DNA of 64,000 nt from an uncultured Nitrososphaerales archaeon (GTDB taxonomy: Archaea > Thermoproteota > Nitrososphaeria > Nitrososphaerales > Nitrososphaeraceae): positions 64,001 to 128,000 of the forward strand of contig CAVQMO010000001.1 of assembly GCA_963713605.1 (NCBI GenBank), in the 5' to 3' direction. The notes under the pieces were generated by a model. The model did no database searches and was not told the origin of the DNA. It saw nothing but the letters and a program-made list of their open reading frames with translations. The position numbers and the translations under genes were made by a program. Every line of letters begins with the position of its first letter. Within the stretch, counting starts at the first letter, position 1. Below, in pieces: positions 434-51,002 of this stretch.

Positions 434-1784
434 TTAGATCAAGCTTCCACCCTCGTCGATAAACAATTGTTCATAGGACGTTCCTCTTCTAATTAGCTTG
501 TATTCGCCGTTCATGGTCTTCATGATAATGGAAGGTTTCGTTTGGCAATGGAAAGGCATATTGAAGACAACAGAATAAGCACCTACGTTGTAAAATGAAA
601 CATACCTACCAATTCTTGCACCAGTAAGATCTGATGACTTAGATTGAGGAAATACATCATATGTATCGCATAATCGACCTGCTAAATGAATGCCCTTACC
701 ATTAGTGTTACGGTCTTGTTCATTGGTATAGCCAAGCGTTAATACTGTTTCTTGTGGGTATTCTTGCTTTAGAAGAGCTGCGTCTAATAAAAGATGGTAC
801 CCTGTATCAACTATGACTATTTTTTGTTCATTATACTCCTTTGTGTTTACTATCTTTGATACCAGAATCGATGATTCTGCAACAAGATATCTCCCGCTTT
901 CAATCAAAAGATCCAATGGTCCATGTGATTCGACCAATCTGTTGAGCCTAGGTACGTAACTGTCTGCCATTTGCGAAGGAGTTGGCACGGACTCGTTATA
1001 ATATACTGGGGTACCTCCACCTATGTCTAACGTATTTACGGTAAATTTCGGAAACTCCTTTTTCATCTTTGTCATAAAGCTGTGCATCTTATCAATAGCG
1101 TGGATAAAACATGAGAAATCTGTGATTTGAGATCCGAGATGGAAATGAAATCCCTCAAAATGCAACAAATCATTATCCATAAGATGCTTGACCATTTTTG
1201 TAGCACTGTCAATGGTGCCGCCATTAAAAGGAACACCAAATTTCCCGTTTCTATATGAGGCACGTATCCCTGCTTTCACACCGACCTCTGGATTAACTCT
1301 GATCATTGTCAGAGGTTTGACAGCGAGCTTCTGCTGCTGCTTTGGCTAAATTAGTCATACCATTAAAAGAACTAACTACTACCTTTCTTATCCCCGATTG
1401 CAACACTACAGAGTATTCCTGAAATTCTTCGGTAATGCTAGTGTATACTATGTTTTCAGGGGGTGCCATGCATCTTCTCAGAAAGTGAAGTTCTCCTAAC
1501 GAAGTAATATCAAAAGTGATTCCATCCTTAATGAACGAGGTTAGAACAGCGGGAGTGAAATTTGCCTTTACTGAATATGCAAGCTTCACAGGTCCTTTGA
1601 ACTTAGAGTAGGCGTCTCGAAGATCATGCACCTTCTTATGCAGCGTACTTTCATCGATAATGTACAAAGGAGTGCCATATCGTACGGCGAGCTTCTCGAT
1701 TTCGACTGGTTCTGCAAAATGATTGAGGCGATGTGTTGATAGATTTAGTTTTTTTGTTAATTGAAGTTGCGAATTTTCCATCAA
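434..1784 (-). CDS. Group IV PLP-dependent basic amino-acid decarboxylase (ornithine/lysine/DAP decarboxylase family), split by a +1 frameshift at ~1325
   Basis: N-part 1293-1784 has YGTPLYI and YSVKAN (PLP Lys). C-part 434-1306 has HFHLGSQ, LDIGGG, ESGRYLV, LCDTYD and GAY. Removing one base at GCTCGCT joins them as ...AEAAVKPLTMIRVNP. Confidence 0.85.
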
Positions 1785-2125
1785 TTTTTTTTTGTTAGTT
1801 AACGGTAAATCATATAACTTAAAAACATTGCTCCATCCAGTCCAGGACGGATCGGGGGATTAACGTTCTACTATTACAAAATGTATCACCCAGACAATAG
1901 GAATGCATTTTCTTCAACCCCCTCTGATTATGATAGGCTGTACATAGACCGCTCTTGGTGTTCCTTCATGTAAGCCAGAAGGAAAATTGATACAAGTTGC
2001 ATTACCGTGCCGACCATCGACGTACCGTTTCCTAACATAATGTAATAAGTGAAATTAATGGTACCCTACGCCCGTTTGAATTCAATAGGCTGATTTTGAT
2101 ATATTTACCATAGTGAGTATCGGTA

Positions 2126-4299
<2,174 letters not shown>

Positions 4300-4452
4300 G
4301 ATGATACCTAGAACTTTACTCATCTTTATACCTTATTAGCTTTCGCTTTCGTTTTTGCTCTTCAAATAATATGTGTAAGTAGCCTCTAAGATACCTAGTG
4401 TTAGCATAAACTTAAAATCACCTATTTAGAATCCTTGATTTGATTATCCAAG

Positions 4453-5185
4453 TTGGGGAAGAGAACCTTAGTCCGAAGAAGAGGAAGAGGAGGAAAACAA
4501 TTTAGAGCGATTATAGTAGGCAAGCTGAGCACCTGCAAAGTATCCCTATTATAGTTTGGATGAAAATCATTCTGGAGTAATTGTTGATCTGGTTCGTGAG
4601 AGGGGAAGGGATGCCCCATTAGCCAAAGTGCGTTTTGAGAATGGTATTAATTCCTATATTCCTGCTTCTGATGGATCGAAAGTCGGAGATAATATTGAAA
4701 TGGGACGAGGCGCTAGTGCAACGGCGAGAAACATACTTCCACTAGAATCAATCCCAGATGGAACCACAATATGCAATATTGAAAAGAATGTTGGCGATGG
4801 AGGAAAGTTGATCAAATCTGCTGGTTCTTCAGCCATAGTGTTTTCTCATGGCATGGAAGGCGTTACTATCAAATTTCCCTCAGGCAAGTTTTCTATGCTA
4901 AACCGTAGATGCAGAGCCATGATAGGAGCAATCTCAGGGGGAGGAAGGAGAGAGAAACCATTTTTGAAAGCAGGCAACAAAGAAAGGTTTATGCATTCAC
5001 GTGGAAAGCTTTATCCTAAGGTTAGGGGAATAGCTCAAGCAGCTGTGTATCACCCACATGGAGGTGGCAGACATCAGCACATTGGACGTCAATCTTCAGT
5101 AGGTAGAACAACCCCTCCTGGGAGAAAGGTTGGAAACATTTCTCCAAGGAAGACTGGGAGAGGAAGGGTCAAGGAGCGCAGGTAA
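4453..5185 (+). CDS. rpl2: 50S ribosomal protein uL2, frameshift at ~4527
   Basis: TTG start gives MGKRTLVRRRGRGGKQFRA. The downstream frame carries YPKVRGIAQAAVYHPHGGGRHQH and PPGRKVG. Confidence 0.95.
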
Positions 5186-5198
5186 TTTTATTTTTTAT
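5186..5198 (+). terminator. Oligo-T archaeal terminator after rpl2
   Basis: ttttattttttt directly follows the TAA stop. Confidence 0.5.
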
Positions 5199-5401
5199 AT
5201 AGGCGGAACAATTTCTGCTCTCTGATGTATACAGAAGTATAATCAAGAACTTGCTTGCTTCGAAAACCCCTTTATTGGTAAGAGCGGCTGAGACATCTCG
5301 CTTATTGAGCGTCTAAAGTAGAGTGCTGATCTGTCCTTCGTCTTGATCTGTTAGCAAACGAATGGCCATGCCGACTAAATTCATATTCTAGCCAGACTAT
5401 A

Positions 5402-5977
5402 ATGAAACTTGTCATGACGAGATACAGGATGTTACTCATTATCTTTGCATCATTCATTATCATTGGAGGAACTGTTATAGGCTGTCACCCACCCTCTGAA
5501 GAAATCAAAGCTCAACATCACAGTGCACCACCTCCAGCAGCAGCGATTGGAGACAGAAAGTTGGTATTAGATATGCAAACAGTACCGGTAAATATTATTC
5601 AAGGTGACGATTTACTAATGACGATTGGATTCCTAGATGAAGGAAAAAATGCAAATATTCAACATGTGACATTTAGAATGGATATTTCTAAGGATGGAAA
5701 ACACATATTCTCTGACTTCTTTCACGATCATAACGGTGAAGTCAGATTGATGTTCAAAGATAAAGGAGGAAGTTTATCAAGTCACACTATCGGGGGAAAC
5801 CAAGACGTGCTTACAAACGCATGGATAGCTGATCCAGGGTCCCCTATAACGATTAGGGGCCCTGTATTCAATCAAAGTGGTACATATAATGTAGATTTGG
5901 AGTTAACTACGATAGACAATGACAAGACAGACTTAGTAGAGCCATTAGACTACCCCTTCGATGTTAATGTTTCATAG
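5402..5977 (+). CDS. Exported or membrane-anchored hypothetical protein (beta-sandwich-like, His motifs)
   Basis: Basic N-terminus, hydrophobic helix ending VIGC, then QHH, IQHVTF and FFHDHNG motifs; 191 aa. Confidence 0.7.
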   Translation: MKLVMTRYRMLLIIFASFIIIGGTVIGCHPPSEEIKAQHHSAPPPAAAIGDRKLVLDMQTVPVNIIQGDDLLMTIGFLDEGKNANIQHVTFRMDISKDGKHIFSDFFHDHNGEVRLMFKDKGGSLSSHTIGGNQDVLTNAWIADPGSPITIRGPVFNQSGTYNVDLELTTIDNDKTDLVEPLDYPFDVNVS

Positions 5978-6238
5978 AGGTGAGAACTTTTTGAGTCACA
6001 ATTTTTTCAATAATCAAACGATGAATCGTTGGAATGAGATTCTTTCCATGGTCCAACACGTAACCCACACCAAATTTCTTGCATTTCCACCATGGGTATA
6101 TACAGATATTGCCAGCTATTTTTTCACTATGTTTAGAGCCGCAAATCTTTTTTTCGCACTCCCTCTTAGTCACCGTTCCGAACGTTGCCAGCCTATGTTG
6201 ATTGAATCTCAAATCTCAACCTTAATATCTGAGAAAAT

Positions 6239-6664
6239 TTGAATATTATATTGGATCTTTCCTTTTTACCTATTGAATTAAGATCTTCGATCATAAGGAA
6301 TATCAAAACAGCGTTAAGATCTCAAAACAATCTAGTTGGCATTCCTGAAACCAAGTCAAATTCAATGACTTTAGACAGCTATGAAAATAGAGTAGTTGGT
6401 TTCACAGACGAAACTGATCGGCTTTATACTGTTCAGTGGGTCAATGGTTCATTAAAGGATTTCAAACTTTTTGTAGAAAATATACTACGAAGCAATCATG
6501 ATGGGTACATAATGGCAGAAGATACCGACGCGATTAATACCTTAACAATACTAAAACAAGGCGATGTCGAACAGTTTGGAATGCACATGTGTAGTCATTG
6601 TGGGACATTCTTTAAAAGTATAGAGGAAAGAACAGTACATGAAAGGATCCATTATTTCATGTAG
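6239..6664 (+). CDS. Hypothetical protein with a C-terminal C2H2 zinc finger
   Basis: CSHCGTFFKSIEERTVHERIH fits C-x2-C-x3-F-x8-H-x3-H. Confidence 0.75.
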   Translation: MNIILDLSFLPIELRSSIIRNIKTALRSQNNLVGIPETKSNSMTLDSYENRVVGFTDETDRLYTVQWVNGSLKDFKLFVENILRSNHDGYIMAEDTDAINTLTILKQGDVEQFGMHMCSHCGTFFKSIEERTVHERIHYFM

Positions 6665-7021
6665 CATAGATTAATATCCTGACCAAACCTCATCCACTTA
6701 ATGCACAGTACGCAGCTTACACCTCATTCGAACATCAGGATCCACGTTGCAAGAGCAACAGGGGTCTCTCCTTTACCAAAGCTAAGGAACTACACAAAGC
6801 TTCAATGCTCAGCTAGTAGATGCAAAAATTTGGTTACTACATTCAGTTCATTCAAAAAAAAGCCAGACCATGTAAAAAAAGTTATTAGAGATCGGGGTTA
6901 AAGCCACTTTGCATGGAACATCGATCTTTTAATTCTCAAAGTTACTGTTAGAAGAAAGTTGACACCATTGTCTTATTTCAAAAACTATAAAGTATTTACA
7001 ATTCTTGTGTACGTTAGAACA

Positions 7022-7198
7022 TTGCATACTAGTATAATTAGGAATATTGGTATTGGTAACGCATCCGAAAAGACTATTTCTAGCATCAAAAAAAATATTG
7101 AGAAGGCCAGATCCCATCTTAATTATCATGTCACTGAAGAAGGAAAAGTAATTAGTCTTGATAAAAAATGTGAGTATTGCCAGGTTTATATGCAGTGA
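7022..7198 (+). CDS. Possible small metal-binding protein
   Basis: TTG start inside ORF 6959-7198; C-terminal HLNYH...CEYC motif. Confidence 0.35.
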   Translation: MHTSIIRNIGIGNASEKTISSIKKNIEKARSHLNYHVTEEGKVISLDKKCEYCQVYMQ

Positions 7199-7818
7199 TC
7201 GAATTCGCTAATTCGATCGACCCATCATTGATATATACCTTTAATGTTTAATATTGCGCTTTTACTCGTTATGTTTTCTCGACAACATATTCCAAGCTTA
7301 AGGAGAAAGCACGTGTGTTACTAGGAAGTGATGTTTTGGTTGCGCTGCAAAATGGAGGGGGCCCTCAGGATAGGTCCCACTAGTTTTCCGATATAGAGTG
7401 ATATTCAATTCATTTCAATGATATATGGAAGTCATTAATGGTTGTAAATGCATTGGACGATTCATTATCGTGATCTATGCTTTTTGAATGAATCAAAAAT
7501 GTGGGTCACTGTTATCAACTCAAATGAGCAAAAAGATTTAGAGCAAACACTTGTGATCCTCTGGTACAGTATACCTACACGGTTGTTCTCATCAATACCT
7601 CTGATTGAAGTGTGATCCTTGCTTTGTACCCTGTTATGAAAAATTACATATAATAGCAAATGATCAAAAAGGATTTGTAGTTGACATAAAATCAGATGTG
7701 GGAGCTATAGGATTGACAGCAACTCCAATCGACAATCTTCTCATACTTTTAGGAAAATTAAGAGGCAAGAAAAAAGAAATAGGGGACGATTTGTTACATT
7801 TCTCAATATATTAATAGG

Positions 7819-8478
7819 CTAGTAAATTGAGCTTTCAGTCCTTGATTCCTGACCCTGAGTCGGGAGGTCGGGAAATTTGTCCCTGGTATTTTCTTCAACA
7901 ACAGCAGTAGCCTCTTCAATAATTTTTACAGCTTCATCATCTAGGCTAAGTGTGCCACTAGCTATTTCAGGAGAAGGTATCTGACCTGTGCCAGACATTA
8001 TATTGCCTAATAGATCAGAAATTTGACCGAAAGATTGATCTGCATGAGGCATCATCGAGGAAAGTCCACCTTGGATCCCCTTTATGACAGACATCGCTGG
8101 ACTAAGTGTGATCACGACATCGCCTAGTTCAGTCATGGTGTTAAGCCGTAATTGTATCTGTTCTAATGCCAACTTAGCTGAATTGACCATCTTGTTCATC
8201 CTTCTGATCTGAGATAGCTCATTTGATAATAGTTTTGCATAGCGGCTATCATGATTCTGCATTGCAGTTACTATCCTACCGAAAATGAGTTTATCTTTTT
8301 CCTGCATTTTGCTAGATATCGTTTCTAACTTTGTAACCTGCATCTGCAATTTGCTTCTAGCTTCCTCTATACGCGGCTTCAGTGGAACTTGTGGTTTTAC
8401 ACCTTCAAGTATTTTGTTTCTAACGGATTCACCCACGCTATCTCCCTGCTGTTTATTCCATTTATTGCGAAACGACAT
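7819..8478 (-). CDS. cdvB: ESCRT-III/Snf7-family cell division protein (CdvB paralog)
   Basis: Snf7 helical core (LEQIQLRLNTMTELGDVVITLSPAMSVIKG) and a C-terminal FPDLP motif. Confidence 0.9.
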   Translation of the reverse strand: MSFRNKWNKQQGDSVGESVRNKILEGVKPQVPLKPRIEEARSKLQMQVTKLETISSKMQEKDKLIFGRIVTAMQNHDSRYAKLLSNELSQIRRMNKMVNSAKLALEQIQLRLNTMTELGDVVITLSPAMSVIKGIQGGLSSMMPHADQSFGQISDLLGNIMSGTGQIPSPEIASGTLSLDDEAVKIIEEATAVVEENTRDKFPDLPTQGQESRTESSIY

Positions 8479-9023
8479 GATAGGTACTGCTACAGTTTTG
8501 ATTTTGATTATTCTTAATACATATTAAAAAAAATTGTTAATGAGCTTTAACTAATTAATCTTGATCCCTGCTATTCCAGAGGTCCAATCGGCCAAAAAAA
8601 CCGACCCCCATTACTAAATAGCAACGATATCCCATAGTAAAGGTCAACCAATGGCTACATTGAATAGTCCACATGAAATAGACTTAGGTAGAGGAAGATT
8701 GCATGTGAAAAGATAAATAAACCGACATTTAAAGAGCAGTTGAGATGGGTATGTTGAGAAGACGAATTTTCGCTAAAAAGCACACTCAAGCTCGCTATCC
8801 GACTATAATTCAGTATACGGCTAATGATAACACCCGATTTGTGAATGGCTCAGTTGGTTATACTACTAGATTAGTTAGAGCTCGATATTTAGTTAGCCAT
8901 TCAATTCAATGACCAAGAACATGAAAGACAACTACGGCATTTGGTGTTTTGTCAGGTTTAGGAAGAGAAGTATTTACATATCCAAGTTTTTACTTCCCGA
9001 CTAAGGAAGGCGAACTTTACAAA

Positions 9024-9224: not shown

Positions 9225-9234
9225 AAAACAAGTA

Positions 9235-12249: not shown

Positions 12250-14981
12250 TCATCGCCCAATGGTTTGAGAAACCATCTCTTCTAATGATGATATTGTTTC
12301 TCGTATTTTTTGCCTCAACTTCCCGCCTCCTTGACCAAATGCCGCGTTTCCTCCACCTGATCCCCCGAGTGTCTGTGAAAGCCGCTGGGCTAAATCGCCT
12401 GCCTTAACCCTTTTCCTTGCAACTTCTCCTGCAAACGTAATAACACGTACACCTTGACCTTTACCGATAAGTGCGACGAAAATCAGGTATGGATCATTCT
12501 GAATCACCGTCTCACCTAATGAAATATAGTACTCTTCCCCTAGCTCCTCATCGTAACGTACTAAATAATTTGATTCCATCAGACGAAATCACTTTTGAAT
12601 TTTTGAAAATGGAATTCATAACAGAGGGTAGAGTTTTTCTTACGACAGCTTTAAGTTTCCTTTTGGTCTCATCTGCTTCGTCAACAGATTTACGCAATGA
12701 TTCTACAACCTTCTCCTTACTTGCTCCTAGGACGCGCGAGATGGTATTAAGCTGGTTATCTTGTTTTTCCACATAGTCTATAGCAGCCTCACCTGCTACG
12801 AATTCTAGTCTTACAACACCATCCTGAATTCTTTCAGTCCTAAAAATCTTTATCAGGCCGATTTCACCGGTACGACTAACATGAGTTCCTCCACAGGCTT
12901 CTATATCCCAATCCTTAATATTTACAATTCTGACTGTACCGGATGGGACCACACCTCCCTGATAAATTCTAAAGGAGTAATTTCTTTCCGCATCGATACG
13001 ATCGAATGTGTTTATTAGTACCGGGCTATCCTGCCTCACAACCTTGTTTGCAGCTCTTTCTATCCCTTCGATCTCCTCTCGGGTAAGTGATGAATGGTGG
13101 GTGATATCCAGTCTTGCGTAGTCCTCGTCCTTGGACGCTGAATTTTGCCATACCCAGGGTCCAAGTATGCTTCTTGCAGATGCATTTACAATATGCGTAG
13201 CAGTATGATGTTTAGTGATTAGGTCTCTTCTTCTTGGATTAATGCGGACCCTGATCTTCATTCCGGGCAAGAGGCCCTTTGAAGAACTTACTTTATGAAT
13301 TACAATTTCATTTTGTTTTATTACGTCTAATACTTTAATACCTTCAATATCGCCACTATCAGGCTCCTGACCTCCACCTCGAGGATAAAATACAGTCTGA
13401 TCAAGTATAACATAATTGTTTTCAATAATGGCCAAGATTTTGGCATCAGACTCGGTCATCAAATCATGTTCATAATATAGTAATCTAGTTGGTTGCAGCT
13501 CTTCGATGCCAGTAATTGGTCCCAGACTATGCGAAGGACGGTGAGATTCATGCAGTTCAGATAACTGTACATAAAAGGCTTGAGGAATACTTTCAATTAC
13601 TCCTGACTCTATAAGGAATTCAGGCGTGATGCCATCTGATTCGTACAGTCTTATAAGATCATCAACCGAAAGGCTTCGTTTCTTGCCTTTTATTGACGAG
13701 GTAATGGAATTCATTCTTTCCTTCGACCCTAGATATCTATTAGACTCAATCTGCAAAATTGTTCTAACATCTTTTACATGTTCTTCTAATTCCGGGTACA
13801 TCCTTCTCAGATATCCGATGTGAGTGTCAGCGATTTCAGCCAAATCAAATTTCCAACCCATTCTCTCCAGTATTGCCAATGCTCTTCTAAGAATCACTCT
13901 TAGATTATAGCCGCCTCCCACGTTAGATGGAATTGAACCATCGCTAATGGCAAAGAGTAAAGTCCTAGTATGATCAGCGACAGTATACATTGCTTCAAAC
14001 GGATTAACGATCTTGCTCAAATCTTCAAATGAGACTTTCATTTCCTTCGCAAATGTGGTCTTGAGAGCTCTTAATATCCACCTCTGTTCTCTCGAGTGCA
14101 TTTGAGACAAACCTAAAGTAACTTCCTAGTATTTCTTTATCGAGCATCGTTCCAGTTTTACTCATCATCTCATTAATGACTGGACCGAATGTACAGTCGT
14201 AACTAGTCGGTGTGCCCATTGTAATCCATGAGAAACGTTCCAATCCTGCCCCCATATCTATAATTCGGTGTTTCATTGTTCGGTATTCATTTTCGTCTCC
14301 TTCGAATTCAGTGAACACCGCGTTACCCAGTTCAAGCCCATTAACAAAATATTCTAGTGAACACCCAAAGGCTCCTGCTCCCATCCAGACGTCTTCTACG
14401 AAGGTGATGGCCTTAGGATCAATTCCCAATATTTTTGTCAACAATTGGTAATCTAAATCCAAGCAACGATCTTTCCAATATCCTCCTTCCGCATCTGCAT
14501 TGCAGGTTTGACCTATCATGCAAAAGGTTGTGTAATGGCGACCACTGAGGCCCACATTTTCGATGTCGTTGAAACGAACGCACATCTGTGGTACTACTAG
14601 TGGATTGGCAGGAAGTTCAAAAAACACCTTGTTTTGAACTACTCTCTGAAAATCAACGATGGAGGCTATTGTATAATAAAGGTCATCGCGCCATCTGCAG
14701 ACAACAGGGTACCTGCTTACTACAGTGTGTTTGTTTGACCCAAAGAATGCTTCGACTTCCTTCCACGTATCAATATAGTCTAGACGTTTGCTTGTTGGAG
14801 GATTTCCAAGAAACCCATAAGCCTCGTGATCGGGGCAAACTGCCCTATCTACAAGAGACCAAAAAAATTTACCACAAAGATTACATTTGTGCCGTTGAAA
14901 TCCAACTTTATCGAATAGTGCTACTTTATAGTATCTGTCTGGATTAGCGGAAAACAGAGAAGAAAGTTCCTTTTTGCCCAA
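12250..14981 (-). CDS. alaS: Alanine--tRNA ligase, split in three by frameshifts at ~14070 and ~12557
   Basis: RWRDDLYYTIASI, GRHYTTF, DMGAGLER, editing motifs HTATH and CGGTH, C-terminal GGSGGG (DHHA1). Confidence 0.95.
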
Positions 14982-15808: not shown

Positions 15809-16307
15809 GTGGTTATGGCTAGGAAGATGGTAGTTTTGTTACCTGCCATTTTAGCCGCCTTTATTATTGGAGTATTAGGTCTCCTATTGGTCCCTTCCGA
15901 GGTTAAGAACAGAGATCTCAGTTTTCCTACGGGCACAATAAAAATTGACAATGATACTATCAAAGTAGAGGTAGCGAAATCACCTGAAGAGAGACAAAGA
16001 TGGTTGATGTTTAGAGCGGATCCGATTCCTCTGGACTCGGGAATGCTATTAGTTTATGGAAAGCCAGATCTTTACGCACTATGGCTTATAAACATTCAAT
16101 ATAATCTTGATTTGATCTGGTTTGATGAGAATGGGCATGTGGTATATACAAAAGAAAATGCACAAATCTGCAACAACCCATTTGATGCTTCAAAATGTAC
16201 TTACAAGAATACCTCGCTCGCTAAGTATGTGATAGCTCGCCTCATCAGGATTCGTAGCAAATCATAATATTTCATCGAGCTCAACAATGGAGATAGTTTC
16301 AATTTGA
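15809..16307 (+). CDS. DUF192-family exported protein, frameshift at ~16238
   Basis: N-terminal TM, VEVAKSPEERQRWLMFR, GMLLVY, LDLIWFDENG. The corrected end IAASSGFVANHNI...SI stops at 16307. Confidence 0.85.
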
Positions 16308-16852
16308 TACAACACTATTTTGATTGCTTTACATTATTATCAATTTGTGACTTAATCTAACTCATCTATAGATCTTTATTTTGTCAGATTTTAATAGATA
16401 GGTCATTATGATCTTGTAGAAGAGATCACTTAGATAGACACTCGAATAACATAGTACCCTTTACTGCGTCACTATAAACATTGAATGCATTCCTTACTCC
16501 TTTCTAGGTAATTGTGGCTCGTAATTCAGCCAGTTGATTTGGTAGATTGTTTATTTGGGGATACCATTCTAAAGGGAGTATCCGCATACTTCAGTAATGG
16601 GAACCGAATTGCAAGACATTCCAAAAACAAAATATGGTACTGCACAGTAACCATACTCGGCTTAAGTGTGTTCTTTAATGAATTCGCAAAAAAAGTGTTG
16701 GATTCCCCTAATAATTCCTATGTTGTACAAGCATCAATCCATCAGGACATTAAACGAATCGCGTCGGGTCACCCTCGCATACCAAAGCTCTGGCATTAAC
16801 GAACTTGTGATGACGACGGGTCGAGATAAGTGAAAACTAAGGGACAAAAACA

Positions 16853-16861
16853 GTTTATATG
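16853..16861 (+). promoter_or_regulatory. TATA box upstream of the queD fusion
   Basis: An A-rich BRE-like run followed by TTTATAT, about 33 bp before ATG 16893. Confidence 0.5.
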
Positions 16862-16892
16862 TGAAAGCGCTAATAATTTGTGGATATTTTAT

Positions 16893-17715
16893 ATGAAAAG
16901 TCTTCAAGATAAAGACATTAGGTATCTAGATAAGAAGAGAGTAATTTATAGAAGTAGGACTGAATCGACTCTCGCAAAATTGCTATCATTTTTGGATCAT
17001 GAATTTGATTATGACGTAGTTTTCCCAGGAATGTCTAATGGTAAACCATTAACGGTAGATTTCAAAATTGGAAAGAAGTATATTGAGGTAGTTGATTCCG
17101 AGACTGATCTCCAGAAATTCAAGGCTATAAAACAGAAAAATCCCGACGCTAACATCATTGCTATAGGCTCATCAAGATATCTTGCAAAGGTAGACGAACT
17201 AGAATCAGTCTTCGTGTACGATTCACATGAGAATGAAACTAGCTCTATTTTTATCGAAGATCCATCACTAGCATTTGATTATGCACATATTCTTCCCTTA
17301 GTCGAAAGGTGCTCTATACTGCATGGACATACATCAAACGTCATGGTAGAGATAATAGGGACGACCAAGAATAACCTTGTGATAGATTTTGGAGATGCTA
17401 AACGGATCATCAAACAAACCTTGAATTTGATGGATCACAAGTTCTTCATTAGCAAAAAATATGTTGTAAAAGAGGACGAGAAGCACTATTTTGTTTCCTT
17501 CAAAGGTCTACATGGGGATTTCAACCTACAAGTACCTAAGGCTACGACATTTATGTTGTCAGGTGAGGCAACAGTCGAAAATCTTTCAACCGAAATAATA
17601 AGGCTCGCTTGCTCCAAAGATGCCACCCAATGTCGATGCGTTGGGAGTTTATATTTACGAAGGAACCAACAAAGGTGCCCACATTATATGCGGAATAGAT
17701 AGAAGATCTTACTAG
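16893..17715 (+). CDS. queD: 6-carboxy-5,6,7,8-tetrahydropterin synthase (QueD/PTPS) with an extra ~110-aa N-terminal domain; frameshift at ~17606
   Basis: FDYAHIL..CSILHGHT, VIDFGDAK, MDHKFF, ATVENLS. Corrected end LLAPKMPPNVDALGVYIYEGTNKGAHII. Confidence 0.85.
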
Positions 17716-23896: not shown

Positions 23897-24301
23897 CTAC
23901 GTCCTAAATTTTCGTATAATAGACATTGCATTATCCGCCAATTTTATTGTGAATGCTCCTGCGTCGTCCGTAGTAATATGAGATAAATCCTCTAGAAATT
24001 TGGCCTTGTCTTTACCTCTTTCATATACTCCTGCTGATTCCTTAATGCAAAGGGGGAATTTTTGCATCTTAAACCCATTTGATTTAAGATAACTGACAAA
24101 GCTTCTATACGCATTAATGTCATACCAATCGATTCCTCTCTCGTCACAAAACATAATCCATACATCAATAGTGTTTTGAAAAAGTGCTTTTGAACGAAGA
24201 AGATCCAGCGCCAATGATAGATTACGAATAAAAGTAAAGACCTTTCGGCTTATTGAATTTATTGGTATGTTATCCTCGACTTTATGCCTTGAATAGTTCA
24301 T
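23897..24301 (-). CDS. Hypothetical protein (true start may be TTG ~24213)
   Basis: Clean ORF with a globular-looking region LALDLLRSKALFQNTIDVW...FPLCIKESAGVYERG. Confidence 0.6.
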   Translation of the reverse strand: MNYSRHKVEDNIPINSISRKVFTFIRNLSLALDLLRSKALFQNTIDVWIMFCDERGIDWYDINAYRSFVSYLKSNGFKMQKFPLCIKESAGVYERGKDKAKFLEDLSHITTDDAGAFTIKLADNAMSIIRKFRT

Positions 24302-30842: not shown

Positions 30843-31502
30843 ATGGATCTACAGAATAGCGGATACTCGAAGTATGTTCTAGAGCATATGAAGAAAGGTA
30901 CTACTACATGTGCCTTAACCTGTAGTGATGGAGTAGTTCTTGCTGCTGACACAAGGGCAAGTGCAGGATTCTTCATAGCAGATAGACATGTCATGAAAAT
31001 TCAGAAGGTCGATAGGCATCTAGGCATGACAATAGCAGGGGGTGTAGCAGACGCTCAAAATCTTGTCGACATCATGAGGTATAATGCCAATATATTTAGA
31101 CTTTCGAACAGAAAATTGATGCCAGTCAAGTCTGCCGCTAGGCTGTGCTCTAACGTGCTCTTCAATCAAAGATATTTCCCTTATTACGTGCAGATCATAA
31201 TGGCTGGCTATGACTCCGAGGAAGTAGCCAAGATTTATAACATTGATCTATTTGGGTCAATGACTACTGAAAACTTTATCTCTACTGGAAGTGGTTCCCC
31301 CGTTGCATACGGATACTTAGAATCTGAATTCCGAAATGACTTGAATGTAGACGATGGCTACAAATTAGCTATCCGTGCAATTGCTGGAGCCATCCGAAGA
31401 AATGCGGGCACGGGCGACGGTATTAACGTTGTTATTATAGATAAGGACGGATTTAGAGAACTCCCCAAGGAGAAGAAGGAGGCAGTGAAAGTAGCTAATT
31501 AA
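30843..31502 (+). CDS. psmB: Proteasome beta subunit
   Basis: Propeptide followed by G|TTT, VVLAADTRAS, GGVADAQ, STGSGSPVAYG. Confidence 0.95.
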   Translation: MDLQNSGYSKYVLEHMKKGTTTCALTCSDGVVLAADTRASAGFFIADRHVMKIQKVDRHLGMTIAGGVADAQNLVDIMRYNANIFRLSNRKLMPVKSAARLCSNVLFNQRYFPYYVQIIMAGYDSEEVAKIYNIDLFGSMTTENFISTGSGSPVAYGYLESEFRNDLNVDDGYKLAIRAIAGAIRRNAGTGDGINVVIIDKDGFRELPKEKKEAVKVAN

Positions 31503-33339: not shown

Positions 33340-33341
33340 AT

Positions 33342-34776: not shown

Positions 34777-35611
34777 TTAATCAAAGTGTACTTCCCATAG
34801 CTTATCACTTGCTCGCACAGAAGGTAGCCTGATATTATATTGAAACCCGCACTGATCAAGTATGTGCTCAAACTCAAATTTTTCAGTCTCTGAAATGGGA
34901 CCTTCTTTTTTTAACCAATTCATCAAGTGAGAATAGATTTTGTCTTTCAGGTTTTCGTCGCGCACATAGACGTACCAGAGGTTATGTGCAGATCGAAGGT
35001 CTGTCAGCAAATTTCTAAGGATACTGTCATTAATCAACTGTTGTGTATAGTATCTGTTCATTAACTCATGATTTACATCAATCCACGAAGGAGTCCGCCA
35101 CCAAGCAACACGGCTGTATCCAAATTCTTCATATTCACAACCACTATGGATTCCGCACTGTCCACCTTGGTCAAAAGTGGTTATGACACATTTGGCCATA
35201 TTCAGCTACACGAAGCCTGAAGTCTACCCCCGGCTCCATCCATCCAACGAATGCAACATCTATTGGTTGGCTCACACATTCTATCGGGAGTGACACAATG
35301 TGTTCAGGTTTGGGTCTGTTTAAGCGATAGTAAATTGTTGCGTCTTTTTCTATACCGATTGCGCTGGGGATATACCGAATGACTTTGTTAAGAAAGTCTC
35401 CATATCCACAGCCTATGTCCAAGTACTGCGGGTTGGAGGATATTGCTCTTGCAATAGTAACGATCCTCAAAACATCAATTTTGCGGTAGGCAAAGTATGT
35501 ACCTTCAAAAAAAGGAAAAATATATCGAGCGTGACCTTGATAGCGTGAACTTGTAGTAAAATTTAGATACTCTTGATATGCATTAAGCAAGTCCTGGCGA
35601 TCGAATGGCAT
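34777..35611 (-). CDS. Class I SAM-dependent methyltransferase, frameshift at ~35203
   Basis: YLDIGCGYGDFL and AIGIEKD. The two ORFs join as ...RVANMAKCVITTF. Confidence 0.75.
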
Positions 35612-37933: not shown

Positions 37934-38580
37934 TTAGAGTTCATAGAATAAGATTATTTCCCCATTTGTATGCTTTTTTACATCTCTAAGCTTTAGCGGT
38001 ATGCCTTTAGAAATCCGATCGCAACCTTCACCCTCTACTAATGTGACTGCAGATCTCCCCCCAACAATCCGAGGAGACATCGTAATTATTAATTCGTCAA
38101 CAATACCAAGTTTTAGAACGGACCAATTTAGCTCTCCTCCTCCCTCCACTAAAATCCTCTTATAACCCATCTCTTCCAACATTCTGAAAACCTTCCTAAG
38201 CTCAACCTTATTTCGTCCTGCAACTAGAACTTTTGCGCCAGTACCCTCTATCCGACTGATATTGTCAAAAGAAATCTTATGAGAGGCAGCCACTATGGTA
38301 TTTAATTCATTAGCTTTTTCAGGAGCCTAGAACTTGAAGGAATCCTCCCGGTGCTATCAACGACCACTCTTGTTGGAGACCTTGAAACGGCCGTGCCAAA
38401 TCTGACTGTCAGCTGGGGATCATCTGCAAGCACTGTAGAAATACCGACCATTATCGCGTCCGCAGAATTCCTTAATTGATGAACTCTTCTCAAATCAACG
38501 TTTGATGATATAGCTGAATTTCCGCTTTTAGTGGCTATTTTTCCATCAGCTGTCATTGCTGCATTAATAACAATCTTCAA
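37934..38580 (-). CDS. arfC: 2,5-diamino-6-ribosylamino-4(3H)-pyrimidinone 5'-phosphate reductase (Rib7/ArfC type), -1 frameshift at ~38315
   Basis: NAAMTADGKIAT, VHQLRNSADAIMVGISTVLADDPQLTVR, ILVEGGGELN. No deaminase domain. Confidence 0.9.
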
Positions 38581-40618: not shown

Positions 40619-40624
40619 ATCTAA

Positions 40625-41092: not shown

Positions 41093-41101
41093 AGAATTTC
41101 G

Positions 41102-41785: not shown

Positions 41786-41830
41786 TCAAATATTAGTCGA
41801 CATCAATTTGTTATATATCTTACTAATTTT

Positions 41831-42457: not shown

Positions 42458-42794
42458 ATGTAGTTACAACGAAATGAACAAATAAGTGCATATTAAATCT
42501 CGCTAAGTTTTGCAGAGTGAGAATATCCTCAGGCTGTGTTTGTTGTAAATTTTGCATATTGCTAAAACGGGTAAATAGTTAGATATGGCTACTACTATCA
42601 ATATCTATGGGAATCAGTCATATGGAGGTATTATTTTGCAAGATACTTTCTCGTATGTGCATTAATCCGTCCTACAACCTTGAAGGATGTATCGCACGTA
42701 GTATTGTCCATGCAAATGCCTTTCGATCAATACATGGATGCAGATGTAACTAGTTAGCCCAAGAAGTGTGGTTGGTATCACAATATGATCGGTC

Positions 42795-43172: not shown

Positions 43173-43710
43173 CCTCTGTCTTACTTAGGTAGGAAGTGTA
43201 TTTAACATTTATCAGAAAGAATGAGCCACCTTACATGTTTGGCAAAACCGAGCCAACAATACTAAAAAAACGGTCGAGTAACTAAATCAATCTATCAAGA
43301 ACAAATTTACGCATTATTTACATTAAGGTCAATTTTAGACTGACAAAGGTTCGGTAGATAAAGGATATTCTGTTGCCATTGCTCACCAAAGTTGATTATT
43401 TTGCACAATGCTAAGGTCATAATACGCATCAAAAACACATAGGCTCCAGAAATTAATCTTCATTTTATTTTGAGTGCCTGAATTGAGTACATACATAGTA
43501 GTACTTAACACATGTAGCCTTGAGAAATTTCTATCTCAAAACATCTGTCATAAACAAAATATAGTCTAGATCGATGTATATTGCTTTTAAAGATAGGAGC
43601 TCTTGTTACAAGTCAGTTATTTTCATTCTTCCTGAACTCGCTTTACAAGCCTCTCAAGTAACATTAGGACGAATCTCACGTTTTGGTACAGGCTATTGTA
43701 GCAGGCGAGC

Positions 43711-45782
43711 TCAAGCCTTTGCATAAAATCCTGCTTTCCGTTCGAAGATTTGGCCATTTTGCATGGCTTTTCTTAGATAATTTTTTGCCTCATCTTCCGT
43801 AAATTTTCCAGTATTTATGAGTTCGTCAATGAAGTTTCTTTCACTTACGTCATTCTTATCTTCGCCTGCAAGGGCATTAAATATCTCTATAAATAGCTTC
43901 AGTTTAGAGACTTCGCTGTGTGGTTTACCGTGAAGTACCCCTAGATCTACCTTCCCAGTATTCACATCCATACCAGCCGTCTCTAGCATTCTTTGCACCA
44001 AATATATTGCACGTTCAGCATCATCAATTTCTACCATGTCCTTTAACAACAATCGGGCTCGAGCAGTCGCTAACCTCACGAGTCCTTCAAGTTGTCTGGG
44101 AGTAACAGTAATCATTCCCTCGGCTTCTACATTTCGCATTTTCATGTAATAGTCTTTAATTATATCCATTGCTTCATTCGATAGAGAAGGCTCGACTTGC
44201 TTTGCATATGCGAGATACTTACTAAGTAATTCTGTATCAATCGCGGGTTGAGCGAGCTCGATTAGCATCCCTATGAATTTCCAGAATATGGCTTGCGACC
44301 CGACTATCTTTTTCTCTTTCAGGAGTGTCCCGAACCACAAAAATAAGATCAAACCTCGTAAGGAGGGGGATAGGTAGATTAACGTTTTCTGTAATATTCT
44401 TGAAAGGATCGTATTTTCCATACATTGGGTTGGCAGCAGAAAGAATAGATGTTCTTGCATTCAACGTAGCTACGATTCCTCCTTTCGCAACAGAACAAGT
44501 TTGTTGTTCCATTACCTCATGTAACGCAGATCGATCTTCCGGTCTCATCTTATCAAATTCATCTATGCAAACCAATCCTTGATCGCCCAATACGACTGCT
44601 CCTGCCTCCAGCATCATTATACCGGATTTGTCCCTAATTACGGCTGCAGTTAGTCCGGCCGACAGTAGAGCCTCTCCCTGAAGTATAAAGCCCCCTAGGA
44701 GCTATCTTTGCCGCAAACTTTAGCATCTCTGATTTTGCTGTACCCGGGTCACCTACTAGGAAGACATTCATATCTCCTCTTCTGGTTGATCCGTCACTAA
44801 GTTTCTTTGTTAAACTACCAACGATCAAAAGTAATATGGACTCCTTTATCACTTCATGTCCGTATACATGTGGGGCGAATGATGCAATCAATTTATCATA
44901 TGCATCGGCTTTACTTGATACAGTTATGATTTGTCTTTCATCTTCGCTCCTTATGGTTAGACGCTCTATTGTGCGCGAGTCCTTATTGCCAGTTCCTCCA
45001 CCAAGATATTCTATATTATTGCCTTCCATTCTTAGTCTGAATAGACTGGTTCTGATCTGGGGAGAGACTTGTTCTTGTTCTATTCTTACGATTCCAGTTA
45101 GCATAATTCTGTCACCGGGACGACACTGATCGACAAGGTCTCCCATGACAGTCACTTCCACATAATGTGGCAATTGACCGGCAGGTAAATCCTCCGGAAG
45201 CTCTTGAAGTCGTACCAATTGGAAGTCGGTAAAGATACTATTCTCTGGATCCATCTCAAGCTCCTTTTCTGCACAATTCACGCATTTTGCCGGTTTCTTT
45301 AACAACAGACCTTTGAGCTGCGCTTCATTAATCGTTTGACAATTCGTACATCTATACCCGATCCTCTTGGCTAAGGGCTTAACTTCTGAAGATCTTACAA
45401 CCATACCCCAGACCCCTATTAGCTTATCGATCACCTCTGCGTTAATATCACGTAATGTTCTCTGAACAGAATAATTGCCAATCCTAACCTTTATTCTGTC
45501 GATTATTTCTTCAGCATAATCCGGATGAATCTCGTTCAATACTGTCAAGACTGCAGAGTTAAATGCTTCGAGCATGTCATCAGGATGATGGGTCATTTCC
45601 TTTGCAAGGTCAGGAGTAAAAGTATCAAAATCAATATAGTCAATTACAACAGATGTAGAGCCGAGAGCCATCATGTGATTTATTCTTTCAAAGTACTTGT
45701 AATTGCCTAGGTTATCCTTAAAACCTCTCAGAAATCTTTCAAGTTCATTAGATAACGATGCAGAGGTCTGCTGTTCAGTCAA
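43711..45782 (-). CDS. mcm: MCM replicative helicase, split in three by frameshifts at ~44662 and ~44254; no intein
   Basis: Zn finger CTNC...[48 protein letters not shown]-terminal wHTH. Confidence 0.96.
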
Positions 45783-46321
45783 ATTTCCTTAAAACCTTCT
45801 TTTTGAACGCAATAGTCGACTCATGAATTAAATCATACAGTTCGCGCTCCTCCACTGATAATTTTTCTCTTATTGCCGGTGTTAATGTGGAGGTTGCAGA
45901 CCAACTTGACAATTTTTTCGATTCTCGATACTACGAATGAATTAAGTGATACAATTATTCTTTCCCGATCCTTTTCGTCTAATGAGGAGAGATAGTCGTT
46001 AACTCGGATGTAGAAGTCGGCGTTTATGCCAGAAAGATCGTGAGCCCTTGCAATTCTCTCCAAGTTGAGTGTTCTTGAAACGTAAGCGGCATCGTCCTTG
46101 TCGTTGATTGTGACTATTCCTGACTCCGAGAGGTTCTGCGCCAGCCACCGAGGAATCGAGCTAATGTCGCCTTCCTTCGAATCGATAACAATTTCATCCA
46201 GTGACACATTTAAAGCCTCCTTGTACTGCACTTTAACATCTTCTACTAGGTATCCCAACTTGTACGAATCTTGGATACTAGTCAGTCGCTTCTCATTCGA
46301 GAAACATTGGTAGTTTGCCAT
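45775..46321 (-). CDS. gins23: GINS complex subunit (Gins23 type), frameshift at ~45900
   Basis: IPRWLAQNL (B-domain), ADFY, RIEKIVKL, corrected KLSVEERELY. The corrected stop overlaps the mcm start. Confidence 0.82.
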
Positions 46322-46614
46322 TTTATCACGCTCCTACTTTTAACTTAATCATTCGAGTTATATTTTTTCTTATGACAGTTTTATTTAAGCGGTGGGTAAA
46401 TCAAACGTAACGTACAGTAACCAAAAAATGAACATGACTTTGGAGTTTTCAGTAAACTTGAATAGCCGTTAACTCGTTGGTGCTTTGGCACCGGTTTTTC
46501 AATCATACCATAAAATACCTAATAAGAACTCATCATTTTTTTTAGATAAGTCCAAGGTTTACAACTCGAATGATCGCTATGCATGAGGAGAGTAGGCAAC
46601 TACATATTTGTGTG

Positions 46615-48427
46615 TCACAAATCCCGTAGTTCCTGCACATTTTTTTCAACTAAATCAAATCCCTGCTGCCAAAAGTCCCTGGAAGAGATGTCGATTCCTA
46701 TATCAGACAAAATTTCCTCTGTCTTACGAGAATCCTCCGGACGAAAGCAATTTGTAGTATTTAGGAATAAATGACAACTTTCCCTCTTTTCTGAATTGAT
46801 GGTAAAGAGACAGAACTAGCAAATTTCCGAATGAATACGCGTAGCAATAGAATGGACTATGATATAAGTGTGGAATGTATAGCCATTCCCATCGAAAATC
46901 ATCTGAAACAGTTACCGAATCACCGAACTGATCTTCAAGATTTTGTAAGTACAGGTCTGATACTTCGTTTATATTTGCATTCTTTTCAGTTATGGCCTTA
47001 TGAGCTTCAATCTCAAATAGGGTAAAGTAAGCTTGTCTCATAATAGTAGCGTACATATCATCGATCTGAGAAGCTAGCAGGACAGCTTTCTGCTCGCGTG
47101 TTAATTTGCTGATGAGTTTATCATTAAGGAGAATTTCAGCAAAGACTGACGCTGTTTCGGCCAAGGGTAATGGAGCGTGGGCAACAGATATTGGTTTATC
47201 TGAGGCTGCCATACTGTGTATAGCATGACCTAGTTCATGAGCCATAGTGCTAACATCTCTAATTCTACCATCAAAATTAAGAAGTATATATGGCGTAAGT
47301 TTTGGCGTAACCGTGTAACAGAAGGCGCCACCTTGTTTTGCTTTTCTTATTTCGGAATCCACATGTTTTTCATTGAATACTTTTGTTGCAAATTTACCAA
47401 ATCTAGGATCAAAATCAGAAAATGTGTCGATGACCGTGCTAACCGCGTTCTGGTAGCTAAATCTTTCCCGATACCTCCCACTGAGGGTTAGGGGCGCGTA
47501 CAAATGGTACCTGTGAAGCTTTTTGAGGCCTATCATCGCAGCTTTTTCTTTGAAGTACCTCTGGAATACCTTTGCATTAGAACGACAAGCTTGGAGAAGA
47601 GATTCTACGGTTGAATCATCTAGATTGTTGTATGTATTCCGTACCGAGATTGGTCTCTTAAATCCACGTAATTTTATGAATTCATCATGCCACTGTATCA
47701 CCTTATTGAAATAAATTTCGCCTAGGACACCACTATTCTTTTTGTATTCCTTTAGTAGCGACTTGTATGCTGACACCCTCTCTTCCTTCTTTGTGCTCCT
47801 AATCATCGAGAGCATCTTTTCCTTATTGTTGAATTTTTTTTCTATGACCAGTTTACCTTTTTTTAGCTGTACAACGAATTCTAGAGAGCTTGTCATTCTG
47901 TCGTATATCTTTGTGAGGGCTCCTGACCCGCTCACCTCCAGTGTACTAATAATCTTCTCTTCAGGTTCAGATAATGTGAATTTGGCCAGAAGCCGACTAT
48001 GTTTCAGATGCTCTCTATAAACAATCGGAGCAGAATTTATCAGACGTTCGGCGTTCAAATCATCAAGTTGTTTTTTAAACCAGATGTCAAAAAATAATAA
48101 GCGGTTTGATACGTCTGCTGACAGCATTTCCATCTTAGTTAGTAGGGCAGCGGCTTCGTTTGACGAGGTATCAGAGGCATATTTCAGATGGGCGTACCCA
48201 ACTGCAATACTGATCTGCTCATTTATTCCTTCAACAAGATTCATGAGTTTTTGAAATTGACTTGCAGAAATGCTCTCTTTAAGCATCCCACGTTCGCCTT
48301 CGATCCGCTTTGCAGCCTGCTCAATCGATTTTATCAGATTCTGTAATTCTTCTCCTTTATGGTTCTCTATCAACTGTGATAGATTCCATATTGTCGGTTT
48401 AGGTCGCATTAAAAGCGTCATACCCAT
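46615..48427 (-). CDS. pepF: M3B oligoendopeptidase F, frameshift at ~46732
   Basis: KQGGAFC, TMAHELGHAIH, AETASVFAE, HLYHSPFYCYAYSFG. Corrected end GGSRKTEEIL...DFWQQGF. Confidence 0.92.
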
Positions 48428-48598
48428 CAGCAGAATCCTATGAAGTGGTCACATATGTTTCTTGCATGTTCTGGTTTTAGCCTGATCCAATTGCATTGAT
48501 GTTTTCAGTTTTTGAAGAGAACAAACAGAAAGGTATCATTACAGATCTGCAATCTAATGTATGGCGATTCTTGCATTGTACTTTAGAAAACCAGTATT

Positions 48599-51002
48599 AT
48601 GTTTAATAATCGAATATTTGGAAATACTTTAGGATTGAGTCGAACTCATAGAATTGAAGAGAAGAAATGGAATTCCGATAATGAAGCGAAAATTCGTCAA
48701 AAATGGGAGAATGCTAGGACTGATAATACCCCAATCAATAGAGGACAGGCCCCTTTTGTAATCGATACTCCCCCTCCATACCCTTCAGGTCGGCCATGGC
48801 ATATCGGAGCAGCGGCTCATTATGCGCAGATCGATATGATAGCTAGGAGCGCTCGAATGAGGGGCTTCAACGTCCTGTTTCCAATAGGTATCGATCGAAA
48901 TGGTCTTCCAATTGAAATCTATACGGAAAAGAAATACAAAATTAGGATGAGGAAAACAGATAGGAGGAAATTCTTAGAATTGTGCAAGAGTGCTTTGGAC
49001 GAACTTGAACAAGAGATGATTGAGATTATGAAGTCGATTGGATTGAGTGCAGACTTCAAGAATTACTATAAGACCGATTCAAGTAAATTTAGAGCGCTAA
49101 CTCAAAGTACTTTCATAGAGCTGTGGAACAGGAAGTTGATCTACATTGCTAATAGGCCTAATAACCTATGTCCAGACTGCGGAACCACTATAGCAGATGC
49201 GGAAATTGTATACGAGGAAGTTCCCACCAAGCTCGTATACATGAATTTTAGTATAAAGGACGAAACAAAGGGAATAATAGTGGCATCAACTAGACCAGAA
49301 TTGCTTTTTGCTTGTCAAGCAGTTATAGTAAATCCTAATGACGAGCGCTATGCGGATATTGTAGGGAAGAAGGTATCTGTTCCTCTCTTCGACAAGCAAG
49401 TCCCAGTTTATGCACACCACTCAGCTAGACCAGAATTTGGAACTGGTGTAGTTATGGTCTGTAGTTATGGCGATCAGAATGACGTTTCATTATTTAGAGA
49501 GCTCGGATTGAAGGAAGTTATCGCTATAGATATCTATGGGCGCACTACAGTCGAAGCTGGCTCATATGCTAATCTTCCAATACAAGAAGCTAGAGTTAAG
49601 ATAATTTCTGACTTGAAGACAAACGGCTTTCTACAAAAAACCGAGGATATTATGCATAGAACTCCTTTATGCGAGAGAAGCAAAACTCCTGTGGAGATTG
49701 TTCCATTGCAAGATTATTACCTTAAACAAATTGAGTATATTCCCCAACTAAGGCAGCTGACAACCCATCTCAAGTTTTATCCTGAAATTCACAGACAAAT
49801 TCTAATGAACTGGCTTGATTCGGTTGCAACTGATTGGCCCATTTCAAGGAGACGATATTATGGAACAGAGATTCCTATCTGGTATTGTGTGAATTGCAAT
49901 TATCCCAACCTACCGCCCCCTGGCAAATATTACAGACCTTGGGAAGAGGATCCTCCATTTGATAAATGCACCAGTTGCGGAGCAGGAAAATTTGTTGGAG
50001 AAGAACGAACATTCGATACTTGGATGGACTCCAGCTTGACTGCTATATACATAGGTAAATATGGGGAATCAGATAGAATCCAACATCCTTACCCCGGTAC
50101 GATTAGACCCCAAGCAAAGGACATTGTTAGAACTTGGCTATACTATTCAATGCTACGTTGTGTTCAATTGACCGATAAGCTGCCTTGGTCAAAGGCCTGG
50201 ATAATGGGTTTTGGAGTTGACGAAAGGGGCGAGAAAATGAGTAAGAGCAGAGGTAATGCAATGGATCCTATACCTATAATCAATACATATGGGGCGGATG
50301 CGTTCAGATTCTGGTCAGCATCGGAATGTAATTTAGGCTATGATTTTCGGTGCTCTGAACAAAAGATATCAGTTGCAAAGAACTTCTTGTCTAAATTATG
50401 GAATGTTGCAAGGTTCATATCCTCGTTTGATAATGTCTCTGAAAAGCCAACAACTTTAGCTCCAAGTGACATGTGGTTGCTGGGAGAATTGCAGAAACTA
50501 GTTGAGGAATGTAGGATAGGATTTTCCGAATTCAATTTCTTTATTCCCTCGAACGCCATACGAGAATTCACCTGGAACGTTTTTGCAGACTCACTACATT
50601 GAGATGGTCAAGTGGAGGGCATACCTTGATGGGTCTAGTCAATCTCGGCAGTCATCGATCTATACCCTTCATAAAAGTATGACGACAATCCTTACATTGT
50701 TGGCCCCGATATGTCCGTATATAACCGAGGAGATCTGGACGAGCATGTATAGCAATGAAAATGAAAGCATCCATCTGCGTAAGCTACCAGAAGTAGAGGG
50801 AGATTACAGTGAGTATTCTAAGTATACGCAGCTAATTATCATTTTTAACTCCATGGTCTGGAACAAGAAAAAGTCTTTTATTTCTCCAGAAACCGGAAAG
50901 CCGCTATCACTAAAGGATCCTATAGAATTAGCGATTCCCGAGAACCTATTGCCTTTCGAAGAAGATCTAATTAAAATGCATAACATTAGCAGAGCAGTGT
51001 AA
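48599..51002 (+). CDS. valS: Valine--tRNA ligase, frameshift at ~50589
   Basis: IDTPPPYPSGRPWHIGA, ASTRPEL, DWPISRRRYYG, DTWMDS, KMSKSRGN, LLAPICPYITEEIW. Confidence 0.95.

Follow-up and report, generated by a model that had tools for sequence, protein, structure and literature searches.

The 64,000-nucleotide stretch analyzed here (the window) covers positions 64,001 to 128,000 of contig C1 in the assembly of an uncultured member of the Nitrososphaeraceae (genome G000, 4.09 Mb in 15 contigs, ~39-40% G+C), and it contains a series of conserved genes whose reading frames are broken by single extra bases. Comparison with the orthologous DNA of same-genus genomes indicates that these frameshifts are almost certainly assembly errors and that the extra bases gather at three cytosine-containing palindromic words, GCWGC, GTAC, and AGCT. 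The explanation that best accommodates these observations, and that as a whole is probably correct, is that the genome was assembled from long reads, most likely nanopore reads, and that the frameshifts are consensus errors, not mutations, arising at sites where the native DNA is modified.

Nucleotide identity between this genome and the genomes of the same genus is 81-93%, so that direct DNA alignment is possible. Orthologous loci were taken from five congeners for window positions 1-60,000 and from three further congeners for the region of the MCM gene, and the comparison was extended into C1:128001-188000, so that three or more relatives cover each of the 86,359 positions compared in total. 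The screen was limited to indels whose net length is not a multiple of three and on which the covering genomes agreed; an event was kept if three or more of the same-genus genomes covering it, and no fewer than 75% of them, supported it, and the local alignments were then inspected. A pattern scan of metagenomes at site 3176, made with flanks specific to the window, gave no matches, and a scan with a genus-conserved word at 2286 gave two contigs that are only 89-90% identical. Since no near-identical, same-strain contig was found in these scans, the two contigs serve as extra relatives for three sites (1334/1335, 2286, and 3175-3177) and not as same-strain controls.

The initial annotation had listed eight frameshifts in conserved genes, all at GCNGC, five of them attributed to the identical change of GCTGC to GCT[C]GC (extra bases are given in square brackets) and three to an extra A in GCNG[A]C. 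At each of the eight sites there is indeed one extra base, and every covering relative (four to eight genomes, with identities of 84-93%) is without it. Seven of the sites had been placed correctly; the one put at ~1325 lies instead at 1334-1335, in the minus-strand Orn/Arg decarboxylase gene, where the plus strand reads CTGC[T]GCTGC and the extra base is missing from five of five relatives and from the two metagenome contigs. The GCGAGC at 1323 is native, for the relatives carry GCGAGC too. Removal of the base at 1334/1335 restores the exact amino acids of the relatives, whereas the repair proposed earlier leaves three mismatches. In the Pfam comparison, the Orn/Arg decarboxylase profile match is split at this site, the first piece matching profile positions 5-106 and the second 109-247.

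The change to GCT[C]GC is directly visible at two of the other four sites assigned to it: in the PTPS/queD-like gene (17606, plus strand), where four of four relatives have GCTGC and the window has an extra C, and in the MCM gene (44254-44255, minus strand; GC[G]AGC on the plus strand), where eight of eight relatives are without the base. At the cdc48 site (3175-3177, minus strand; GC[G]AGC on the plus strand), the base is absent from four of four relatives and from both metagenome contigs. The relatives read CCAGC or CTAGC at 3176, and the original was presumably GCAGC, judging from the shared GC[G]AGC signature. The site in the DUF192 gene (16237-16238, plus strand; GCTCGC, extra base absent from four of four relatives) is ambiguous, since the relatives have GCTGC or GCCGC and either could be the original. 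The three GCNG[A]C sites are all borne out by the relatives. They comprise an extra A in the MCM gene (44662, minus strand; GCCG[A]CAG, the sole GCSGC case), an extra A in open reading frame (ORF) 45833-46321 (45900, minus strand; GCAG[A]C), both lacking in eight of eight relatives, and an extra A in the valyl-tRNA synthetase (ValRS) gene (50589, plus strand; GCAG[A]CT, original GCAGCT), lacking in five of five. For the last site a change of GATC to GACTC had been offered as an alternative, which is ruled out by the GCAGCT of the relatives. ORF 45833-46321, named "gins" in the initial annotation, has no Pfam match. The consequences for the other proteins are evident from Pfam: cdc48 is found in two pieces and MCM in three, the Anticodon_1 domain of ValRS is divided into 1-41 and 41-121 in separate pieces, and the DUF192 and PTPS matches are truncated.

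These eight sites are a part of a larger set. The screen against the relatives gives 20 assembly-specific +1 insertions in the window, together with four -1 and three -2 events, so that 12 further +1 sites had been missed, several of them away from GCNGC. Over the 86 kb compared, the totals are 27 +1, seven -1, four -2, and two +2 events, that is, ~0.3 extra bases per kb and roughly 0.4-0.5 frameshifting indels per kb. The 27 insertions were assigned to motif classes by hand from the alignments, the GCWGC class being defined as those within 2 nt of the word. Eleven of the 27 lie at GCWGC, against 0.33 expected (P ~1e-14), and 12, against 0.45 expected, if GCSGC is allowed. GCWGC is much more error-prone than any other word, and the products formed there, GCT[C]GC and GCAG[A]C, are stereotyped, as the initial annotation had noticed. 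Four insertions are at GTAC (0.65 expected; P 0.004) and nine at AGCT (0.85 expected), three of these nine without GCWGC. In the compared region, roughly 1 in 10 copies of GCWGC is hit and 1-3 in 100 copies of GTAC and AGCT.

The same words emerge from the whole genome. ORF junctions were listed wherever two long open frames on the same strand overlap by at most 150 nt, with coding-like codon usage on both sides; 688 such junctions require removal of a base and 367 require addition of one. Eighteen motifs, consisting of the 16 four-base palindromes, GCWGC, and GCSGC, were compared with 200 resamplings of random coding windows. GCWGC is present in 115 of the 688 extra-base junction windows (58.4 expected; z 7.7), GTAC in 155 (83.1 expected; z 7.9), and AGCT in 173 (115.8 expected; z 6.1). 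There is no enrichment in these junctions for GCSGC (z 0.7) or CGCG (z 0.0), and the absolute z values of GCSGC and of 12 of the 16 four-base palindromes are below 3. TTAA and CTAG are raised in both types of junction because they contain stop codons and the junction windows end in stops. A hypothesis-free ranking of 6-mers and 7-mers in the 688 windows is headed by the error products themselves: GCGAGC/GCTCGC occurs in 49 windows against 5.6 expected, GGCAGC in 64 against 12, GGTACT in 65 against 14, and AGCTGAG in 17 against 3. The stereotyped products are GCT[C]GC, GCAG[A]C, [G]GCAGC, [G]GTACT, and AGCT[G]AG. GATC, ATAT, and TGCA are below random coding in the extra-base junction windows (z -2.0 to -2.9), and GTAC is mildly raised in the missing-base junctions also (z 2.6). 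A ratio of 6-mer frequencies between the whole genome and the relatives' loci was dropped because differences in composition between regions, such as CAG repeats, confounded it.

The genome-wide enrichment that the initial annotation had suggested looking for is therefore present for GCWGC, and its description of the motif needs revision in two respects. The word is GCWGC and not GCNGC, given one certain GCSGC case and the flat genome-wide count of GCSGC. Nor is GCWGC the only motif, as GTAC and AGCT are equally clear in the junctions and roughly one insertion in four falls outside all three words. GATC, the expected target of Dam (N6-methyladenine, m6A), was rejected as an error motif: it accounts for one of the 27 insertions against 1.11 expected (P 0.68), its genome-wide z is -2.5, and it is not error-prone in this genome.

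A search for the cytosine methyltransferase that had been anticipated gave a divided result. No match to PF00145, the C5 cytosine methylase family, was found in the genome, which has an estimated completeness of 87% and an estimated contamination of 4.5%. Three full-length N6_N4 methylases are present, and in all of them motif IV is SPPY, the signature of N4-cytosine enzymes, which makes them candidates for the formation of N4-methylcytosine (m4C). Dam is intact, with DPPY, and there are also two methylase fragments and a fragment of type I. The genome has as many SPPY enzymes as it has enriched words. Two of the three, encoded at C3:133578-134387 and C1:956542-957450 (both on the plus strand), are found in five of five other genera of the family, a distribution that would fit the order-wide GTAC and AGCT groups. 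The third, encoded at C1:279286-280317 on the minus strand (PF01555, E 1.5e-43; SPPY at residue 35), has the beta-class N6_N4 fold with the SPPY/SPPF catalytic motif, and it is the candidate GCWGC m4C methylase. Of the 13 other genus genomes searched, it was found in 11 (10 of 12 if the unpublished genome G073 is left out), among them a second long-contig assembly of the genus, G003, and it was found in only two of five genomes from other genera of the family; homologues of ~60% identity are widespread in metagenome-assembled genomes of Nitrososphaeraceae. Its neighbors are a zinc alcohol dehydrogenase gene and tiaS, with no restriction enzyme beside it. As it is found in most genomes of the genus, in fewer of the other genera, and in G003, which shares the GC[G]AGC errors, this enzyme appears to be the best candidate for the GCWGC writer. 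In a one-contig genome from another family of the order (G039), two identical-scoring copies of the candidate with 56% identity are found at C1:10054-11052 and 493246-494244, and they could belong to a repeat or mobile element.

The proposed mechanism is as follows. The cytosines of GCWGC, GTAC, and AGCT would carry N4-methyl groups, which the three beta-class SPPY methyltransferases could add, and the modified bases would shift the sequencing signal, to which the basecaller or polisher would respond at some of the sites by adding a base. That modification of these three words is the cause of the errors is, on the sequence data at hand, likely. The reading as m4C is favored because two of the three error words are published m4C marks of Nitrososphaerales and the count of SPPY enzymes matches that of the words.

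Several observations weigh against this mechanism. Modification-induced errors are described as mostly substitutions in the Hammerhead study (PMC11610603), and the events here are insertions. Seven or eight of the 27 insertions lie outside the motifs; these include A runs, CACTG[T]AACTG, and site 14073, which is ambiguous and may lie at GATC. Only a minority of the motif copies is affected, and no flanking-base rule for the failing GCWGC copies was apparent by eye among the 11 sites. NCBIfam and PDB searches with the methylases gave generic beta-class matches well below the curated cut-offs, from which none of the three enzymes could be assigned a target, and the portion of the genome that is absent from the record (completeness 87%) could hold a C5 methylase. 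Finally, the second long-contig assembly, G003, bears a similar signature. Its contig C6 has the private extra bases GC[G]AGC (twice), [G]GCAGC (twice), and [C]AGCT at places that align to window positions 31387, 38129, 39033, 54618, and 58478, and its junction 6-mers are topped by GCGAGC (6 against 0.3 expected). These private bases count as further evidence that such insertions are errors, but as to their cause a shared methylome and a shared basecaller bias would explain the signature equally well. In 400 kb of contig C6 of G066, a genome without the candidate methylase, there are 56 type-1 and 55 type-2 junctions; with no excess of extra bases, this genome is uninformative.

Some of these points are also what would be expected from a context bias of the basecaller or polisher that is independent of modification, in which GCWGC, GTAC, and AGCT would merely be hard k-mers and the methylases a coincidence. 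The striking of only a fraction of the motif copies, the predominance of insertions over substitutions, and the recurrence of the same products in a second assembly that possibly came from a shared pipeline all agree with such a bias. It would leave to chance, however, that all three words are cytosine-containing palindromes, that two of them are published persistent m4C targets of Nitrososphaerales (PMC10609329), and that three SPPY methylases are matched by three enriched words. It would also have to account for the flat counts of GCSGC and of 12 of the 16 four-base palindromes, TTAA and CTAG being explained by their stop codons. We consider a context bias of this kind unlikely, although it deserves to be taken seriously, and favor base modification at the three words.

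A different possibility is that the extra bases are real mutations, in a decaying genome or in a population with genuine frameshift alleles, with methylated motifs perhaps acting as mutational hot spots. The extra bases are, after all, fixed in the consensus of record. Such an account is nonetheless very improbable, given the density of the lesions, the genes that they strike, and their behavior where one locus was assembled more than once. Approximately 40 frameshifting indels in 86 kb include two in MCM, one in ValRS, two in the alanyl-tRNA synthetase (AlaRS), one in ribosomal protein L2, and two in cdc48, all essential genes, and not one frameshift indel is shared with any congener among the five to eight same-genus genomes compared over the 86 kb. 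Pseudogenes would be expected to spare essential genes or to be shared by kin, and neither pattern is found. Moreover, the same 22-kb block was assembled twice, as C2:78569-100497 and C13:1-21919, with 99.2% identity between the copies, and the two differ by 41 indels that include [G]GCAGC (twice), [G]GTACT (three times), GCTGC[C], and GG[T]ACC. Because duplicate copies of one block disagree at such sites, the errors are not reproducible. The Dam-family gene is likewise present in two copies, C11:20774-21721 and C15:66992-67939, which differ only in their middle; there the C15 copy is out of frame between two compensating indels, and its DPPY is destroyed. The opinion of the initial annotation that the frameshifts do not represent pseudogenes is thereby upheld.

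The block may be present a third time, at C12:377834-389318, with the copies 99.2-99.7% identical, and the record is therefore partly redundant. The redundancy may reflect contig-end overlaps or co-assembled strains, and it may contribute to the contamination estimate of 4.5%.

Programmed +1 recoding or transcript editing at GCWGC, already judged much less likely in the initial annotation, can be set aside as scarcely credible: the products are stereotyped at a defined word, but in the relatives a single frame, which reads straight through at all sites, encodes the same proteins, the frameshift site is not conserved, events are found between genes and at the ends of genes as well (5391, 46330, and 51009), and where one locus was assembled twice the two versions disagree at these sites.

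The 12 further insertions in the window include several at or beside GTAC and AGCT. In the minus-strand cdc48 gene, close to its 3′ end, there is an extra C beside AGTACT (2286; TGT[C]AGTACT) that is absent from five of five relatives and from the two metagenome contigs. At 8483-8488 (minus strand), an extra G in ATA[G]GTACT is located at the 5′ end of ORF 7819-8478; three of four relatives show a net difference of +1 and one of +2. An extra A two bases from GTAC (12555-12557, minus strand; absent from five of five relatives) splits the alanyl-tRNA synthetase gene, according to Pfam. On the plus strand, an extra G in AGCT[G]AGC (4527-4528; absent from four of four relatives) cuts off the N terminus of ribosomal protein L2, as seen from Pfam. 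The NurA gene, assigned by Pfam on the minus strand, has an extra C in ACT[C]AGCTGC at 55057-55058, which reads AGCT[G]AG on the other strand and is lacking in five of five relatives. An extra T two bases from AGCT (35200-35203, minus strand; lacking in five of five relatives) lies at the junction of ORFs 34777-35199 and 35171-35611.

Other insertions are found away from these words. Just upstream of ORF 5402-5977, an extra C in CTAG[C]CAG (5390-5393) is missing from four of four relatives. A second extra base in the minus-strand alanyl-tRNA synthetase gene (14071-14075, TTAA[T]ATCC; Pfam) is absent from five of five relatives. The window reads TTAATATCC at 14071-14075, and four of the five relatives read TTAGATCC, so that a GATC site may have been altered here by both a substitution and an insertion, and not by an insertion alone. 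With the insertions at 12556 and 14073, the alanyl-tRNA synthetase is left in three pieces. Two minus-strand insertions add an A to a run of A, one in ORF 23897-24301 (24236-24243) and one that splits the archaeosine TGT gene (32458; Pfam); both are absent from five of five relatives. Near the end of an AAA_18 kinase-like gene (Pfam), an extra T is present in CACTG[T]AACTG (34088, minus strand; absent from five of five relatives), and at the 3′ end of a peptidase M3 gene (Pfam) an extra A lies inside GATC, in GAG[A]ATCC (46731-46733, minus strand; absent from eight of eight relatives). An extra G in AAA[G]CGCTAAT at 16867, beside the start of ORF 16830-17702, is seen against the loci of five relatives; it was dropped by the stricter screen, as a nearby one-base gap compensates for it in one relative.

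Bases are also missing from the window. One is lost at a T run (38314-38319, minus strand; one more base in five of five relatives), one in ACG-CTCC (46330-46331; one more base in six of seven relatives), and one between the ValRS gene and the next gene (51006-51012; one more base in four of five relatives). At 43700-43709, immediately beyond the MCM gene and adjoining a GCGAGC, the window is one base shorter than three relatives, in a place of thin coverage. Beyond the window, in continued numbering, the insertions include GCT[C]GC (68355), GCAG[A]C (90232), AGCT[G]AGCT (69280), GCTG[C]CAGC (77495), and AGTAC[G]T (78977).

The consequences for use of this record are considerable. At roughly the density of frameshifting indels given above, a third or more of the genes in the record are falsely broken, which probably also makes the completeness of 87% an underestimate. 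Before it is annotated, searched for pseudogenes, or used in a pangenome, this record needs polishing with homologues or short reads, as does that of at least one congener, and the genes in the window, the essential ones included, are to be treated as intact. In addition, the errors yield a methylome prediction, cheap to test, for an uncultured soil genus of Nitrososphaeraceae, namely m4C at GCWGC, with one candidate enzyme, besides the m4C at GTAC and AGCT that is already published for its order. The prediction changes no concept. We suggest only tentatively, and with more doubt than confidence, that GCWGC is a fourth persistent mark of this genus, as m4C, beside GATC, AGCT, and GTAC, and that the orphan SPPY methylase at C1:279286-280317 is its writer. 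If this were true, assembly errors would reveal the target of a methylase group that has no assigned site. The candidate might correspond to the group with an unknown recognition site that is listed for Nitrososphaera (PMC10609329); against this identity, the one-contig family member that was searched had no match to the candidate.

As a phenomenon, the errors belong to a known kind of long-read consensus artefact, and the reading of a methylome from them is plausible. Methylation motifs that a basecaller has not learned are the cause of most consensus errors in nanopore assemblies (PMC6591954; PMC11610603). In the benchmark on the Dcm motif, CCWGG, by Wick et al. (2019), ~70% of the consensus errors were in the motif (PMC6591954). 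Similar to the Dcm errors, the errors described here gather, in what is probably a long-read consensus of native DNA, at short words that would be methylated and outside the training of the basecaller. They differ from those errors (PMC6591954) in that three words are involved, the presumed modification is m4C and not 5-methylcytosine (m5C), and the events are single-base insertions; here we infer both the platform and the modification. The approach is related to the Hammerhead pipeline (PMC11610603), by which a methylome is likewise read from sequencing errors without raw signal, the idea put forward in the initial annotation. Hammerhead draws on strand-specific mismatches in reads (PMC11610603), whereas a finished consensus, its relatives, and ORF junctions were used here.

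For the GCWGC word itself, two precedents are relevant. Predicted m5C enzymes for GCWGC are given for several archaea, including Nitrosoarchaeum limnia, in Table 1 of PMC11033074; these enzymes are of the predicted m5C class, which was not found in the present genome. M.AbaBS3I of Chloroflexi is a GCWGC-specific m4C methylase (Hiraoka et al., 2019; PMC6329791), and it shows that GCWGC can carry m4C and that a diverged N4 methylase can have this target. No report of measured GCWGC methylation in Nitrososphaeraceae was found in the literature searched, which covered few subscription journals and did not include REBASE.

The closest comparison is with the persistent orphan methylases of the lineage. 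In the REBASE survey of PMC10609329, GATC m6A methylases are reported in 27 of 29 Nitrososphaerota, GTAC m4C and AGCT m4C methylases in eight of eight Nitrososphaerales each, and a CGCG m4C group and the group of unknown site in five of five Nitrososphaera each. GCWGC is not among these persistent groups, and CGCG and GATC, which are among them, give no error signal in the present genome. The genome analyzed here belongs to the Nitrososphaeraceae and encodes Dam and three SPPY methylases, and GTAC and AGCT, two of the marks published for its order (PMC10609329), are among the words at which its assembly errors gather.

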